Shown piece by piece: positions 1-55,029 of a stretch of 55,029 bases of DNA; the stretch's first letter is position 1; every line of letters starts with the position of its first letter. The DNA lies in the IMG/VR virus record IMGVR_UViG_2859793810_000007; one strand, given 5' to 3'. The notes beneath the pieces were generated by a model. It had not been told where the DNA came from and did no database searches. It saw nothing but the letters and a program-made list of their open reading frames with translations. Position numbers and translations under genes: made by a program. This DNA is from a virus (lineage: Duplodnaviria; Heunggongvirae; Uroviricota; Caudoviricetes).

Positions 1-477
1 ATGAAACTCATCAGTAACGATCTGCGCGATGGCGATAAGTTGCCGCATCGTCATGTCTTTAACGGCATGGGTTACGATGGCGATAATATTTCACCGCATC
101 TGGCGTGGGATGATGTTCCTGCGGGAACGAAAAGTTTTGTTGTCACCTGCTACGACCCGGATGCGCCAACCGGCTCCGGCTGGTGGCACTGGGTAGTTGT
201 TAATTTACCCGCTGATACCCGCGTATTACCGCAAGGGTTTGGCTCTGGTCTGGTAGCAATGCCAGACGGCGTTTTGCAGACGCGTACCGATTTTGGTAAA
301 ACCGGATACGATGGCGCAGCGCCGCCGAAAGGCGAAACCCATCGCTACATTTTTACCGTTCACGCGCTGGATGTAGAGCGTATTGATGTCGATGAAGGAG
401 CCAGCGGCGCGATGGTCGGGTTTAACGTTCATTTCCACTCTCTGGCAAGCGCATCGATTACCGCGATGTTTAGTTAA
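1..477 (+). CDS. ybhB: YbhB, PEBP-family protein (chromosomal gene flanking the lambda attachment site)
   Basis: 158-aa ORF recognised as E. coli YbhB (MKLISNDLRDGDKLPHRH...), stop at 475-477. Confidence 0.9.
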   Translation: MKLISNDLRDGDKLPHRHVFNGMGYDGDNISPHLAWDDVPAGTKSFVVTCYDPDAPTGSGWWHWVVVNLPADTRVLPQGFGSGLVAMPDGVLQTRTDFGKTGYDGAAPPKGETHRYIFTVHALDVERIDVDEGASGAMVGFNVHFHSLASASITAMFS

Positions 478-567
478 TCACTCTGCCAGATGGCGCAATG
501 CCATCTGGTATCACTTAAAGGTATTAAAAACAACTTTTTGTCTTTTTACCTTCCCGTTTCGCTCAAG

Positions 568-720
568 TTAGTATAAAAAAGCTGACCGAGAAACAGTAAA
601 AATCATTAATATCAATGCATTATAATACATTTAGCTTAAAAAATAGACTGCATAATACTGCAAAACACAACATATCCAGTCACTATGAATCAACCACTTA
701 GATGGTATTAGTGACCTGAT
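568..720 (-). other. lambda-type attR (15-bp core plus P-arm), right end of the lambdoid prophage
   Basis: rc of 568-582 is GCTTTTTTATACTAA (lambda att core); rc of 583-720 closely resembles the lambda attP P-arm (CAGGTCACTAATACCATCTAAGT...CATAGTGACTG...); B-prime side continues into ybhB. Confidence 0.75.
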
Positions 721-859
721 ACAGAGCATTAGCGCAAGGTGATTTTTTGTCCTCTTGCGCTAATTTTTTGTCAACGCACTGGGTTAGCTGAATTTACAAC
801 CATGCTCAGTATCTCGATAAGCGCAGAGAAATGATGCTGTGGTGGGCAGACTACTGGCT

Positions 860-960
860 TGATGAAAAGGTAGGGCGACCAACCGCGTTTTTTCAGTTCA
901 GTCAGCACATTGAGCCAGAACTTCACCCCTTCATTTTCGGCCAGCCACATCCCCAACAGT
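860..960 (-). pseudogene. IS256/mutator-family transposase remnant
   Basis: ORF 771-956 begins WLAENEGVKFWLNVLTELKKRG, the conserved core motif of IS256-family transposases; rest of the gene is missing or out of frame. Confidence 0.4.
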
Positions 961-984
961 TCTTCCTGTTCTTAACTATTTACA

Positions 985-1001
985 GGCGCGTTTTTTTAAA
1001 G
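985..1001 (+). promoter_or_regulatory. MxiE-box-like motif upstream of ipaH
   Basis: GGCGCGTTTTTTTAAAG: exact match to the 3-prime 12 nt (GTTTTTTTANAG) of the MxiE box consensus GTATCGTTTTTTTANAG, about 60 bp upstream of the ipaH ATG; AT-rich -10-like hexamers follow; GAGGA RBS before ATG. Confidence 0.5.
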
Positions 1002-51775: not shown

Positions 51776-52112
51776 CAACCATGAGCCAGCTAAAACATAC
51801 TTCACCTCACATAATCACACATGTAACATACCTAAACGGCATGAGCTGATTTGTGATATGAGTCATTTGGTGACAGCCTGGTTGTTATCGGTTTTGAACG
51901 TTTTTTGAAGCTATGATTGAAATGATTTATAGTGTTTTTGTTTTTCGTTTTTTCAATGAAACAAAAGCAATTTTTTACTATCTTTCGCGTTTCATTGGTT
52001 AACGCCTAAAATTTGTACTACAGGCTTGCAAGCCCCACCAAATCTAATCCCATCAGATCCCGAATAATCCAATGTTCTCCCGGTTTTTTCGTACTTCAAG
52101 TGAATCAATACA

Positions 52113-52454
52113 CTGGGGCAAACGCTAACCCGTTTCCGCCAGCGTAAACATATGCTGGAAAGTATTGATAGCGCCAGCCAGAAGCAAATTGATGAGATGT
52201 TTAATGCCTATGCTCGCGGTGAACCCAAAGACGAACTGCCGACCGGCATTGACCCCTTGACGCTAAACGCGGTGCGAAAACTGTTTAAAGAGCCTGGTGT
52301 GCAACATACGGCAGAAACGGTGGCGCAGGCACTGACCATCAGCCGCACCACTGCCAGGCGTTATCTTGAATATTGCGCCAGCCGCCATCTGATTATTGCT
52401 GAAATTGTTCACGGCAAAGTTGGCAGACCACAACGCATATACCACAGTGGGTGA
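52113..52454 (+). pseudogene. dpiA: dpiA (citB) response regulator, 3-prime fragment; 5-prime part displaced by the Mu-like insertion
   Basis: frame reads LGQTLTRFRQRKHMLESIDSASQ... to ...RRYLEYCASRHLIIAEIVHGKVGRPQRIYHSG from the first base after the Mu end. Confidence 0.8.
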
Positions 52455-52494
52455 CATGATAAAGCCGGAGGAAACTTGCCTCCGGCATTACTAT

Positions 52495-53880
52495 TTACTT
52501 GCCTGTGACCGCTGCTGCCGTTCCTGGCACCATCAGCTCTGTAGCAACGATAACAATCACTAGCCCAACAAGCACCGGCACCGAGGTGCGTTTTACGACT
52601 TCAAATGGTGAGATTTTCGCCATCCCGGCAACCGCAACGACTACGCCAGAAACGGGTGATAGGGTACGACCCAGGTTTGACGCCTGCAGCATCGGGATAG
52701 TCAAATACGCCGGGTTAATGCCGGAAGAGTGCGCCAGTTTCGGGATCATCTCAACAAACGCATAAAACGGCGCATTGCCTGAACCGGTCGTGACTGCCGC
52801 CAGCATGGTCAGAATCACCAATACCAGCATCAGGATGATACTCGCCGAACCAAACGAGGTAGCGATAGAAATCAGACTTTGAATAAAGCCGATGGTGCTA
52901 AGCCCCTGAGCGAATACCCCAGCGGCAACCAGCAGCATCACCACGTTAGCAAACGCATCTGCCATCCCGCGATAAGCCACTTCCAGACCAGAGAAAACTT
53001 TCTGGGTATTAAAGCTGCGGAGGAACTCCAGAATGGAGGCAATCAGCATACAAATCACCAGAATAGTGATGATGTGTAATTGCGGACCCCATTTACCGTC
53101 AAAAATCAGTACACCGATGATCGGCGTGAACGGCAAAATGGCATAAAACGCGGGGGCAGTGGTGGTGATTTCACTGACATCTAACATTTCATGAGAGATG
53201 TGCTCTTTTTTATCCAGATAACGTTGCCAGAAGAAGTGGGCGATCGCCATGCCGATAATTGCAGCAATTGAGATAGGCAGCGTCGTTTTGAAGGCGAAGT
53301 CAATCAGCGACATTTCGGAAGCCTGCGCCGCCAGCACCACATCCCCTGAAGTCGGTGCGAGAATAATCGCCGCCGGGGAGGCACAAATGGCAGCTGCTGC
53401 GCCACGACTGATACCAACGTTTACCATCACCGGAAACAGGGTTGCCATCAGCAAAACCCCCAGACCGGTTGCGGAAGAGACGGCCAGTGACATCAGACAA
53501 GCAACAAAATAGGCGGCAATCATCAGCAGGTAAGGGGAGTTAATATACTGCAATGGTTTTGACGCCAGCTTGACCACCATATCATTCGCGCCGATATGGG
53601 TCATGTAAGCGGCAAAGCCACACAGCATCATAATCATCATGCCGAGGTCGCCGCCGCGGCTCATTAGTAATATTTTAACGTATTCAACGATATCCGTGGC
53701 GCTGTAGCCTGTTGAAGCCTGGCTGGACGGTAACACTTTGTGCCCCATAATGGCACTGATAATCAGCAATAACAGGCCACCGACAAATAACACACCAGTG
53801 GCGGAATACCCTTTAATGATGTAGCGAGCCACACCCACAATAACCACAACCCCAATAAGGAGTTCAATGAATGTCAGCAT
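52495..53880 (-). CDS. dcuC: anaerobic C4-dicarboxylate transporter DcuC
   Basis: 461 aa from MLTFIELLIGVVVIVGVARYIIKG...; multi-pass membrane protein; ATG at 53878-53880. Confidence 0.9.
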   Translation of the reverse strand: MLTFIELLIGVVVIVGVARYIIKGYSATGVLFVGGLLLLIISAIMGHKVLPSSQASTGYSATDIVEYVKILLMSRGGDLGMMIMMLCGFAAYMTHIGANDMVVKLASKPLQYINSPYLLMIAAYFVACLMSLAVSSATGLGVLLMATLFPVMVNVGISRGAAAAICASPAAIILAPTSGDVVLAAQASEMSLIDFAFKTTLPISIAAIIGMAIAHFFWQRYLDKKEHISHEMLDVSEITTTAPAFYAILPFTPIIGVLIFDGKWGPQLHIITILVICMLIASILEFLRSFNTQKVFSGLEVAYRGMADAFANVVMLLVAAGVFAQGLSTIGFIQSLISIATSFGSASIILMLVLVILTMLAAVTTGSGNAPFYAFVEMIPKLAHSSGINPAYLTIPMLQASNLGRTLSPVSGVVVAVAGMAKISPFEVVKRTSVPVLVGLVIVIVATELMVPGTAAAVTGK

Positions 53881-54468
53881 AATTTTTCCTGTCTCCAGGC
53901 CCAAAGTAAATAATAAAAACTTCCTAAAGCTTAAGGAAAAAATATGCCCAATAAATTGGCGATGAATGCTGATTAAAATCAAGAAAAACTGCCATTAAGA
54001 CATTGAAGTTGCTGTTTTTATACATAGATAACAAAACGCATATTTAGCGGTTGGCAATTATCACATAATAATGTGTGTAAATTGATGGTGGATTGATGCA
54101 AATTTGTTAATTGCAATGGTGTTAGTTGCGGCTGTGCGCTCAAAAAATAATCTAATATGAGCATGGGTTGACGATATATATTATATACTTCGTTAAGATG
54201 ATTGTTGTATCTCGTTAAAAAAATAAAATAATTTTTCCTTGATTGCATTTTGTCATCAAAAAAGACTTGGTTTTTCTTTTTTGACTATTCCCATCGCAGA
54301 AAACGACGCATCATCTTTAATCGATGCGCGGAAATATTTAACTTGAACAAGCGGAAATAAATAGAGCAGCTATTCAGATTATTCTTTATGTTGGGTCTAT
54401 TAAGGTTATGTTAATTGTAGCTTTGCTATGCTAGTAGTAGATTTTTGATAAATGTTTTATGGTCACAA

Positions 54469-55029
54469 ATGAACGTGAGTAAATATGTCGCTATCTTTTC
54501 CTTTGTTTTTATTCAGTTAATCAGCGTTGGTAAAGTTTTTGCTAACGCAGATGAGAGGATGACAACGTTTAGAGAAAATATTGCACAAACCTGGCAACAG
54601 CCTGAACATTATGATTTATATATTCCTGCCATCACCTGGCATGCACGTTTCGCTTACGACAAAGAAAAAACCGATCGCTATAACGAGCGACCGTGGGGTG
54701 GCGGTTTTGGCCTGTCGCGTTGGGATGAAAAAGGAAACTGGCATGGCCTGTATGCCATGGCATTTAAGGACTCGTGGAACAAATGGGAACCGATTGCCGG
54801 ATACGGATGGGAAAGTACCTGGCGACCGCTGGCGGATGAAAATTTTCATTTAGGTCTGGGATTCACCGCTGGCGTAACGGCACGCGATAACTGGAATTAC
54901 ATCCCTCTCCCGGTTCTACTGCCATTGGCCTCCGTGGGTTATGGCCCAGTGACTTTTCAGATGACCTACATTCCGGGTACCTACAACAATGGCAATGTGT
55001 ACTTTGCCTGGATGCGCTTTCAGTTTTGA
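54469..55029 (+). CDS. pagP: lipid A palmitoyltransferase PagP
   Basis: 186 aa from [25 protein letters not shown]...; ends ...YFAWMRFQF with stop at window end. Confidence 0.9.

Follow-up and report, generated by a model that had tools for sequence, protein, structure and literature searches.

Chromosomal rearrangement at insertion sequences (IS) is already well known in Shigella, and is ordinary there. The accessible part of one genome comparison describes IS-mediated inversions and translocations between S. flexneri 5b 8401 and 2a 301 (PMC1550401), and that of a second study places 103 of 114 reconstructed inversions on Shigella branches (PMC8072062). The window analysed here, a stretch of 55,029 nucleotides, resembles the cases in those parts of the two papers. 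Its break points lie at IS elements including IS600, large segments are involved, and a lineage-fixed arrangement is accompanied by further variation between strains. It differs in that this particular joint is not dissected in the accessible parts, and in that three prophages and two IS families take part within 52 kb.

Both ends of the window consist of E. coli backbone. Positions 1-582 correspond to K-12 807,909 down to 807,328 (98.1% identity; ybhB and its flank), and positions 52113-55029 to K-12 654,201-657,117 (98.8% identity; the 3' part of dpiA, dcuC and pagP). The features at the two ends are:

1..477, + strand: ybhB, backbone, opposite to its K-12 direction (K-12 807,433-807,909, 98.1%; Pfam PBP, E 3e-42)
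568..582, no strand: lambda att core TTAGTATAAAAAAGC, 15 bp, attR of prophage Y; the K-12 match ends exactly here
52113..52454, + strand: dpiA 3' part, codons ~114-226, cut by Mu (alignment to K-12 dpiA; Pfam HTH_64)
52495..53880, - strand: dcuC, backbone (98.8% vs K-12; Pfam DcuC)
54469..55029, + strand: pagP, backbone (K-12 match)

A junction search placed the start of dpiA identity at query base 301, i.e. at window position 52113. K-12 has 153,127 bp between the two break points and the window 51,530 bp, as the sequence-only reading had recognised when it described two loci roughly 150 kb apart in K-12 joined by about 52 kb of prophage and IS DNA. The whole of 583-52112 matches prophage or IS sequence, and none of it is backbone. 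On the + strand, the left end runs towards falling and the right end towards rising K-12 coordinates. Hence, two K-12 right-hand sides, the ybhB side and the dpiA 3'-pagP side, meet head-to-head. The DNA between them comprises six blocks in mixed orientation, drawn from three prophages and separated by two IS types.

The largest part of this DNA (583-35271) is an ipaH-carrying lambda-like prophage, here called Y, in its native site attB-lambda:

1060..2823, + strand: ipaH, type III secretion effector E3 ligase, 587 aa, at the tail-fibre end of Y (Pfam LRR_TTSS and NEL; ipaHa in the enteroinvasive E. coli (EIEC) FDAARGOS_943)
3003..24864, - strand: Y late region with tail fibre, Lom, J, tail, head, portal, terminase A and truncated Nu1 (ORFs; FDAARGOS_943)
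26130..31985, - strand: Y lysis, Q and replication genes: Rz', lysozyme, 209-aa ORF, holin, Q, NinH, DnaB-like, DnaC-like (ORFs, Pfam)
28267-28577: Gly, Thr, Arg and Met tRNA genes in the preceding module
33235..35271, - strand: Y toprim primase-helicase, 5' 609 codons with intein, and upstream region, native orientation (Pfam Toprim_2, Hint, LAGLIDADG)

The late region is 98.4% identical to the ybhB-adjacent prophage of FDAARGOS_943, with equal order and orientation, and several of its genes are split, including J, H and the portal gene. The truncated toprim block is 99.1% identical to positions 3535-5362 of an FDAARGOS_943 locus (L033) on the same strand. An identical IpaH protein adjoins ybhB in many Shigella genomes. 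The module from dnaC to Rz (26130-31985) was considered as a part of prophage X or a foreign insert, and both were ruled out by S. flexneri 61-4982. In this strain (locus L060) the module shows 100% identity and runs on without a break into the rest of Y, and it belongs to Y because Y toprim and NinB lie on one side of it and the Y terminase on the other.

Like the lambda-type prophages found between ybhC and ybhB in E. coli lysogens and in FDAARGOS_943, Y shares the att core at the backbone boundary, points its tail end towards bio/ybhB and keeps the order J...A-Nu1-Rz-R-S-Q-replication. In contrast to these prophages, it is decayed, carries an ipaH effector gene and retains only the attR side, separated from the int-attL-ybhC side. 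Neither int nor attL (the second att core) was found at the other end of Y within the window, and the prophage is split; in EIEC and S. boydii, int and attL adjoin ybhC. For annotation, this means that the ipaH gene beside ybhB is part of a decayed attB-lambda prophage.

Two further pieces (36509-38219 and 39469-47987) come from a second prophage, X, which in an enteroinvasive E. coli is flanked by pgl and ybhA:

36509..38219, - strand: X scrap with holin 5' part, tRNA genes and 3' part of a DUF1133 Q-like gene, in EIEC orientation (Pfam DUF1133, E 4e-78)
37278-37587: Gly, Thr, Arg and Met tRNA genes in the X scrap
39469..47987, + strand: X head module with terS, terL (interrupted), portal DUF1073, MuF-like, DUF2213, cement and major capsid genes (Pfam)
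40913..42243, + strand: IS2 interrupting terL, simple insertion flanked by the 5-bp duplication GCAAT

The scrap is 98.9-99.8% identical to positions 19245-21733 of the EIEC X locus (L062) on the same strand. The head module is 99.3-99.6% identical to positions 17420-8879 of this locus on the opposite strand, i.e. inverted relative to EIEC, and ~95% identical to phage vB_EcoM-689R2. Thus, the Y late region, the truncated Y toprim block and the X segment from holin through the tRNA genes to the truncated Q gene are collinear with EIEC, whereas the X segment from terS to capsid is inverted.

The third prophage is Mu-like and abuts dpiA:

49252..52112, - strand: Mu-like prophage left end with truncated A (544 aa), ner and c repressor, the latter on the + strand (Pfam Mu transposase domains)

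It ends at 52112 in the Mu-like terminal sequence TGTATTGATTCACTTGAAG and matches positions 1-2962 of Mu, D108 and the Shigella phage SfMu on the opposite strand, with 94-96% identity across roughly two thirds of its length. Shared with these phages are the c-ner-A order and the insertion within a gene, here dpiA. It differs from them in that the window holds only 2.86 kb of the left end, with A cut at codon 544 by IS600, and its c, ner and A N-terminal region are divergent from Mu. The Mu right end was found neither in the window nor in any of the 74 fetched loci. Exact-pattern search for the predicted joint of dpiA 5' part, target-site duplication and Mu attR gave no matches in the genome collection, in which two genomes have the known attL-dpiA joint. 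Protein queries with full-length DpiA and with its 113-aa N-terminal part returned no Mu-truncated N-terminal fragment from S. flexneri. The full-length query retrieved full-length homologues only, and the matches to the 113-aa query turned out to be E. coli frameshift alleles. Since neither the attR joint nor the N-terminal fragment was found, both the 5' part of dpiA and the remainder of Mu may have been lost, which gives the rearrangement a possible deletion component. For annotation, the Mu-like insertion leaves S. flexneri with an inactivated dpiA.

IS copies were located by self-BLAST, and their flanking bases were compared for target-site duplications. The copies at the joints are:

24865..26128, - strand: IS600 copy A, flanks GTT/CCC, no duplication; site of a deletion that extends from the Rz 3' end to the Nu1 5' part
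31986..33234, + strand: IS911 copy 1, flanks GTC/TTG, no duplication; 99.2% vs annotated IS911
35272..36508, + strand: IS600 copy B, 25-bp internal deletion, flanks GAC/CTG, no duplication; joins Y early DNA to the X holin gene
38220..39468, + strand: IS911 copy 2, flanks CAC/AAG, no duplication
47988..49251, - strand: IS600 copy C, flanks AAT/ATA, no duplication; joins the X capsid end to truncated Mu A

None of the five IS600 and IS911 copies is flanked by a target-site duplication, while IS2, the control, is bracketed by GCAAT. A complete IS occupies each novel joint, and homology to the reference arrangements stops at the IS ends. This bears out the earlier proposal that the end points of the rearrangement lie in prophages or IS elements, as each internal joint is either an IS600 or IS911 without duplication or a phage end. 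The DNA deleted at IS600 copy A is retained in S. flexneri 61-4982 and in LR213452. IS911 copy 1 replaces 4.7 kb of Y, from the toprim 3' part to a 302-aa ORF, and the missing DNA is present in the 61-4982 locus. The flanks of IS600 copy B are 53.5 kb apart in FDAARGOS_943. A 263-aa deletion variant of IS600 OrfB occurs in many loci, including the pgl-ipaHb locus of S. flexneri 93-3063. The joint at IS600 copy C is common to all fetched S. flexneri loci.

The window is a piece of the Shigella flexneri chromosome, and the rearrangement is real and lineage-wide. It is not a misassembly, because its joints are common to many complete S. flexneri genomes and the window is 99.95% identical to them; positions 39469-55029 are 99.95-99.98% identical to complete genomes including 2002017 and NCTC1. 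With three IS600 and two IS911 near-identical copies in the region, an assembler could in principle have joined unrelated contigs while the true spacing remained K-12-like. Moreover, one joint, between the truncated Q gene and the left inverted repeat (IRL) of IS911 at 38219/38220, occurs in this window only; other S. flexneri genomes have IS911 in opposite orientation at the same base, with its right repeat (IRR) there, followed by a 980-bp segment from Rz 3' to DedA. We nevertheless regard such an artefact as extremely improbable. At least 20 complete S. flexneri genomes, assembled independently, carry the joint from X through IS600 and truncated Mu to truncated dpiA, and several of them also carry that from Y through IS911 to X. 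CP106857 shares with the window both the IRL joint on the dnaC side and the joint of IRR to terS, and the joint of IRR to the truncated toprim gene is present in genomes of structural variant B. The sequence-only reading would have been contradicted by a genome of the same lineage with K-12-like spacing; instead, the close spacing of the window recurs in independent complete genomes of S. flexneri. For example, G1663 has 34,275 bp from ybhB to terS and the window 39,529 bp, which agrees to the base once an indel of 5,254 bp, already known, is taken into account.

In the genome collection, 945 blocks are indexed as carrying exactly this truncated Mu A protein of 544 aa. The joint of Mu and dpiA was found in none of 5426 complete E. 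coli genomes, and no complete E. coli genome covered 80% of window positions 30030-55029. A mosaic imported ready-made by transduction or conjugation from another Shigella or EIEC lineage would fit the related pieces in EIEC, and also S. boydii 600080, in which X late genes follow the dnaC-Rz module of Y beside ybhC. Against such an import, which we consider as implausible as an assembly artefact, stand backbone flanks of ordinary S. flexneri sequence and joints confined to S. flexneri-type genomes. Furthermore, the differences between strains are single IS-level steps, a sign of local evolution. This hinge is still polymorphic, with at least five structural variants among sequenced S. flexneri strains.

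The sequence-only reading had suggested a large inversion or deletion. This is supported, in that the head-to-head ends fit an inversion and not a plain deletion, but several events rather than one are indicated. A simple 153-kb deletion from dpiA to attB-lambda, with loss of gal and its neighbours, would account for the closeness of the two loci and for the failure to find the reciprocal joint and the dpiA 5' part. However, it predicts that dpiB and the dpiA 5' part are joined to ybhB in the same orientation, whereas the window has the dpiA 3' part facing ybhB; a plain deletion is excluded because of this head-to-head orientation. In addition, S. flexneri continues past pagP from cspE onward to dacA in K-12 order, and S. 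flexneri 93-3063 retains ybhJ-pgl. On S. flexneri contig NEDR01000002.1 the distance from ahpF to the dpiA 3' joint is 150 kb, against ~14 kb in K-12, and from this spacing we infer that gal, on an inverted 143-kb segment, lies between ahpF and pagP. Overall, a simple deletion retains only a very slight probability.

The order in FDAARGOS_943 is bioA-ybhB-ipaHa-Y-int-ybhC...pgl-ipaHb-X-int-ybhA-mod-gal, and in other Shigella lineages with the identical IpaH (L045, L047, L050) ybhB and ybhC are still together. From such an order, one inversion through a single IS pair or two prophages, with its ends in the Mu-carrying dpiA and the attB-lambda prophage, would give the observed net orientation of both backbone ends. 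It would not give six blocks of three prophages in mixed orientation with two IS types between these ends. The joint of capsid, IS600 and truncated Mu A is impossible to reach from the EIEC-like order in one inversion, because the two IS600 copies would be direct repeats there. Moreover, the ybhC-pgl block lies elsewhere: in 93-3063, ybhJ-pgl-ipaHb is found at ~1.7 Mb of the record, with the X early region inverted beside pgl-ipaHb. Because of this position a single inversion is insufficient and the path is not unique, and we consider one inversion improbable, though less so than a simple deletion. Reciprocal joints with complementary flanks were not found in the genome collection. A YbhC protein query returned one 4919-member cluster and a 365-aa form, and did not retrieve ybhC of S. 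flexneri; the 365-aa form, considered as a candidate, stems from genes cut off at contig ends, in lineages whose attB is empty.

Several IS-mediated inversions and deletions in an S. flexneri ancestor thus very probably produced the window. This ancestor would have resembled EIEC FDAARGOS_943, with Y in attB-lambda between ybhB and ybhC, another prophage with an ipaH gene, X, flanked by pgl and ybhA, and a Mu-like prophage in dpiA. IS600 and IS911 copies would have built up inside the prophages, and recombination between them may have inverted, relocated and deleted blocks. The net effect would be a reversal of the ~143-kb K-12 segment from dpiA to ybhA, including gal, so that the dpiA end came to abut the remains of X and Y by ybhB. 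The order and number of events are inferred. One consistent scenario would involve at least three inversions: through IS600 within X, through IS600 between the X capsid/tail boundary and Mu A, and through IS911 between the Q and Rz genes of X. In addition, the ybhC-pgl block would have had to move, and three deletions associated with IS elements would be required. The significance beyond bookkeeping is small, but the locus is a well-resolved case of IS600/IS911-seeded prophages acting as hinges of Shigella chromosome reshuffling.

A side observation concerns candidate IS911 end-to-end deletions, which are more unusual than the rearrangement itself. One and the same flank base is joined to opposite ends of IS911 in different strains, and this pattern occurs at three sites: upstream of dnaC, at the DUF1133 Q-like gene and at the toprim gene. 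Recombination inside the IS is unable to bond the same flank to opposite ends, and we therefore tentatively raise the possibility of a recurrent precise deletion that starts at the end of one IS911, stops at the outer end of an inverted IS911 nearby and takes out this second copy with the intervening DNA. Three occurrences within ~10 kb speak for transposase-assisted pairing of IRL with IRR between two inverted copies and against 8-bp microhomology by chance. A 2-bp offset at the joint upstream of dnaC was considered as a sign of independent IS911 insertions and rejected: two other genomes share the identical base, and the offset is peculiar to CP012735. Targeted insertion of IS911 beside its own inverted repeats (Loot et al. 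2002; Rousseau et al. 2008, as cited in PMC2909936) and IS inversion through terminal-repeat recombination (PMC3004938) likewise have end points exactly at the outer end of an IS911 copy. The S. flexneri products differ from both, being deletions of a whole IS911 copy and the DNA between inverted copies, by a putative mechanism. If true, they would provide evidence from nature of a pathway for transposase-guided deletion.

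The window carries E. coli K-12 MG1655 backbone at both ends. Positions 1-582 correspond to K-12 807,909 down to 807,328 (98.1% identity), and the lambda att core TTAGTATAAAAAAGC (window 568-582) is the exact point where this match ends. Positions 52113-55029 correspond to K-12 654,201-657,117 (98.8% identity); a search across the joint between the Mu-like prophage and dpiA gave query base 301, i.e. window position 52113, as the onset of dpiA identity. On the plus strand of the window, the left end runs towards lower K-12 coordinates and the right end towards higher ones. These opposite running directions imply that the K-12 right-hand sides were joined head-to-head. 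The break points are separated by 153,127 bp in K-12 versus 51,530 bp in the window. Distance and orientation thus bear out the sequence-only reading that two backbone loci have been brought close together here. The features between and at the break points are listed below (a prime marks a cut gene).

Features of the window
1-477, plus strand: ybhB (K-12 match)
1060-2823: ipaH, with LRR and NEL domains
24865-26128: IS600 copy A, marking a deletion that extends from the 3' end of Rz to the 5' part of Nu1
26130-31985: Rz', lysozyme, holin, four tRNA genes, Q, NinH and DnaB/DnaC-like genes
31986-33234: IS911 copy 1, standing in place of 4.7 kb of prophage Y
33235-35060, minus strand: 5' part of the toprim primase-helicase gene, with its upstream region also present
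35272-36508: IS600 copy B, linking prophage Y to a 1.7-kb scrap of prophage X
36509-38219: X scrap with holin 5' part, four tRNA genes and the 3' part of a DUF1133 Q-like gene
38220-39468: IS911 copy 2, followed by the X head module
39469-47987: X head module, terS to major capsid
40913-42243: IS2 in terL, with a 5-bp duplication
47988-49251: IS600 copy C, linking the X capsid end to the truncated Mu-like A gene
ending at 52112, against dpiA: Mu-like left end (A', ner, c, terminus)
52113-55029: right backbone end, with the last ~113 codons of dpiA, then dcuC (minus strand) and pagP (plus strand)

Complete Shigella flexneri chromosomes, including CP001383 (strain 2002017), LM651928, CP012137 and CP020342 (strain identities from PMC9455713), matched the segment 39469-55029 (15.5 kb) at 99.95-99.98% identity. 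In the assembly collection, 945 blocks contained precisely this truncated Mu A protein of 544 aa. None of the 5426 complete E. coli genomes spanned the Mu-dpiA joint, and no complete E. coli genome covered 80% of window 30030-55029. The order X-IS600-Mu'-dpiA'-dcuC-pagP was present in all S. flexneri loci fetched, and the Y terminase through Mu A' was linked in CP012735, CP007037 and CP044152. The distance from ybhB to terS was 34,275 bp in CP007037 (strain G1663) versus 39,529 bp in the window; this 5,254-bp difference is a known indel, in which G1663 lacks 6,234 bp (33235-39468) and carries 980 bp. No genome of the same lineage with K-12-like spacing, which would indicate misassembly, was found, while the spacing in G1663 is close and explained by the indel. 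The arrangement is no artefact.

The arrangement is already contained in published reference genomes. IS-mediated inversions are known from published work as a hallmark of Shigella; PMC1550401 ascribes six inversions between S. flexneri 5b and 2a to IS elements, IS600 among them, and PMC8072062 places 103 of the 114 inversions reconstructed for an E. coli/Shigella set on Shigella branches. The joining of the loci is real but ordinary, and its kind is already known.

A single lambda-like prophage (prophage Y) fills positions 583-35271, at its native site and in its native orientation. Starting at the att core, the order is ipaH, tail fibre, Lom, J, tail and head genes, and terminase. This stretch was 98.4% identical, with the same gene order, to the prophage adjoining ybhB in FDAARGOS_943, an enteroinvasive E. 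coli (EIEC) used as ancestral-type reference. The toprim piece aligned to its Y counterpart in FDAARGOS_943 on the same strand, at 99.1% identity. In S. flexneri 61-4982 (CP026792) the Y modules are contiguous, including the 4.7 kb absent from the window.

Several smaller features of Y were also observed. The interval 583-1059, from att core to ipaH, is non-coding with short transposase remnants (per the FDAARGOS_943 annotation), and matches the conserved upstream region that PMC8072062 reports for chromosomal ipaH genes. IS911 cuts the toprim gene in the window; in FDAARGOS_943 (comparison locus L033, 2456-5362) the gene keeps its full length (968 aa), and its product has an intein (Hint and LAGLIDADG) ahead of the AAA_25 ATPase region. 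J (5719-9197), tape measure (11572-14644) and portal (20881-22474) are each split into two ORFs in the window, which points to ongoing decay of Y; unbroken versions exist elsewhere, of J and the tape measure in some other S. flexneri genomes and of the portal in FDAARGOS_943 and E. coli CFSAN029787. A cluster of four tRNA genes (Gly-TCC, Thr-TGT, Arg-TCT, Met-CAT) occurs twice, in the lambdoid prophages Y (28267-28577) and X (37278-37587), at 98.5% identity; in the EIEC X cluster the fourth is annotated as tRNA-Ile.

In FDAARGOS_943, the second prophage (prophage X) lies between pgl and ybhA with a second ipaH aboard, and the flanks of IS600 copy B are 53.5 kb apart. The X scrap was 98.9-99.8% identical to FDAARGOS_943 in the same orientation, and the X head module 99.3-99.6% identical on the opposite strand; the latter was also ~95% identical to phage vB_EcoM-689R2. 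The Mu-like stretch matched positions 1-2962 of Mu, D108 and SfMu at 94-96% identity on the opposite strand. IS2 has a target-site duplication and none of the five IS600/IS911 copies has one, which implies that all five are recombinant or deletion-associated. IS600 copy B has a 25-bp internal deletion giving a 263-aa OrfB; since this variant also occurs at several unrelated loci in other genomes, the defective copy either spread or was carried about by recombination. The X terL of FDAARGOS_943 is also hit by IS2 (L062, 14859-16191) in the same orientation, 220 bp from the site in the window, so that one gene took independent hits in S. flexneri and EIEC.

The order in FDAARGOS_943 is bioA-ybhB-ipaHa-Y-int-ybhC-ybhJ...pgl-ipaHb-X-int-ybhA-mod-gal. 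ybhB and ybhC also stand together in other genomes with an identical 587-aa IpaH (L045, L047, L050), where Y is part-deleted at an IS600. Hence, the S. flexneri arrangement is derived. A large inversion or deletion with end points in prophages or IS elements had been proposed. Deletion would have joined dpiB and the dpiA 5' part to ybhB in the same orientation, whereas the dpiA 3' part faces ybhB. Past pagP, S. flexneri genomes keep the K-12 succession cspE, crcB, tatE, lipA, lipB and dacA. On contig NEDR01000002.1 (1.6 Mb), ent-ybdL-ybdM-IS911-ybdN-ahpC-ahpF ends at ~214.0 kb and the dpiA 3' joint lies at ~364.3 kb (a 1.8-kb extrapolation from locus L017), a distance of 150 kb versus ~14 kb in K-12 by gene order. 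Judging from the spacing, this interval could hold the 654-797 kb segment (143 kb) in inverted form. S. flexneri 93-3063 keeps ybhJ-pgl-ipaHb, with the adjoining X early region inverted relative to FDAARGOS_943 and flanked by IS600 copies. Orientation, gene order, spacing and strain 93-3063 support inversions.

A deletion component besides the inversions is likely. Searches for an N-terminal DpiA fragment truncated by Mu, and for ybhC of S. flexneri, gave other lineages only. Scanning the species-representative genome collection for the predicted dpiA 5'-Mu attR sequence gave no exact match, whereas two genomes in it (CP178302, CP182556) do have the known attL-dpiA joint. As these protein and junction searches found no reciprocal joints, both the 5' part of dpiA and the remainder of Mu may have been lost.

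S. flexneri genomes differ around the IS911 copies, with at least five arrangements.

Variants at the IS911 sites
Variant A: dnaC-IS911(-)-Rz3'-DedA-terS
Variant B: dnaC-IS911(+)-toprim'-IS600-Q'-IS911(-)-Rz3'-DedA-terS, with Q' the remnant of the X DUF1133 gene
Window type: as B, except IS911(+) directly against terS
Variant D (CP106857): window without 33235-39468
Variant E (CP102230): ybdL-ybdM'-IS911(-)-Rz3'...

Variant E is a further inversion via the IS911 in ybdM. The 980-bp Rz3'-DedA (VTT domain) segment (L013, 8960-9939), carried between IS911 and terS by most S. flexneri, is absent at 38219/39469.

A stepwise scenario fits these data, and we infer it with alternative event orders possible. 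It would start from an EIEC-like order with Mu in dpiA. An IS600 inversion within X would then make its early-to-late genes run away from pgl, as evidenced by 93-3063. A second IS600 inversion, with end points at the X capsid/tail boundary and in Mu A, would create capsid-IS600-A' and reverse the segment that runs from dpiA 3' via gal to ybhA; its IS600 copies would be direct repeats in the EIEC-like order, which places it after the first. Thirdly, an IS911 inversion between X Q and Rz would yield Q'-IS911-Rz3'-DedA-terS, the variant B state. Finally, the Y early-ybhC-pgl-ipaHb-X early block would be relocated, with the Y toprim'-IS600-X holin' joint remaining. In S. boydii 600080 (CP049606), with the order ybhC-int'-IS600-dnaC...Rz-DedA-terS...capsid-IS600, the Y early-lysis module was apparently fused in line with the X head via near-identical Rz genes rather than via IS.

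At three sites (31986, 33234 and 38220; L013, L020, L021, L059, L060), strains differ in which IS911 end adjoins one and the same flank base. Upstream of dnaC, ...AATGTC is followed by the left terminal inverted repeat (IRL) in the window versus the right one (IRR) in G1663 and AR-0425. In the DUF1133 gene, ...CCGCCAC is followed by IRL in the window versus IRR in variant B. In the toprim gene, IRR is followed by TTGCGCAG in the window versus ...CCCCATTG followed by IRR' in 61-4982; TTG is the 3-bp duplication on both flanks. Crossing-over within an IS cannot switch the flank-bonded end, so intra-IS recombination is not the cause of these swaps. Putative precise deletions, running from one IS911 end to the outer end of an inverted IS911 close by, would explain all three (pertinent IS911 and IS literature is listed in PMC2909936 and PMC3004938). 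Both deletion end points are direct repeats with the terminal 8 bp TGAAGTGG in common.
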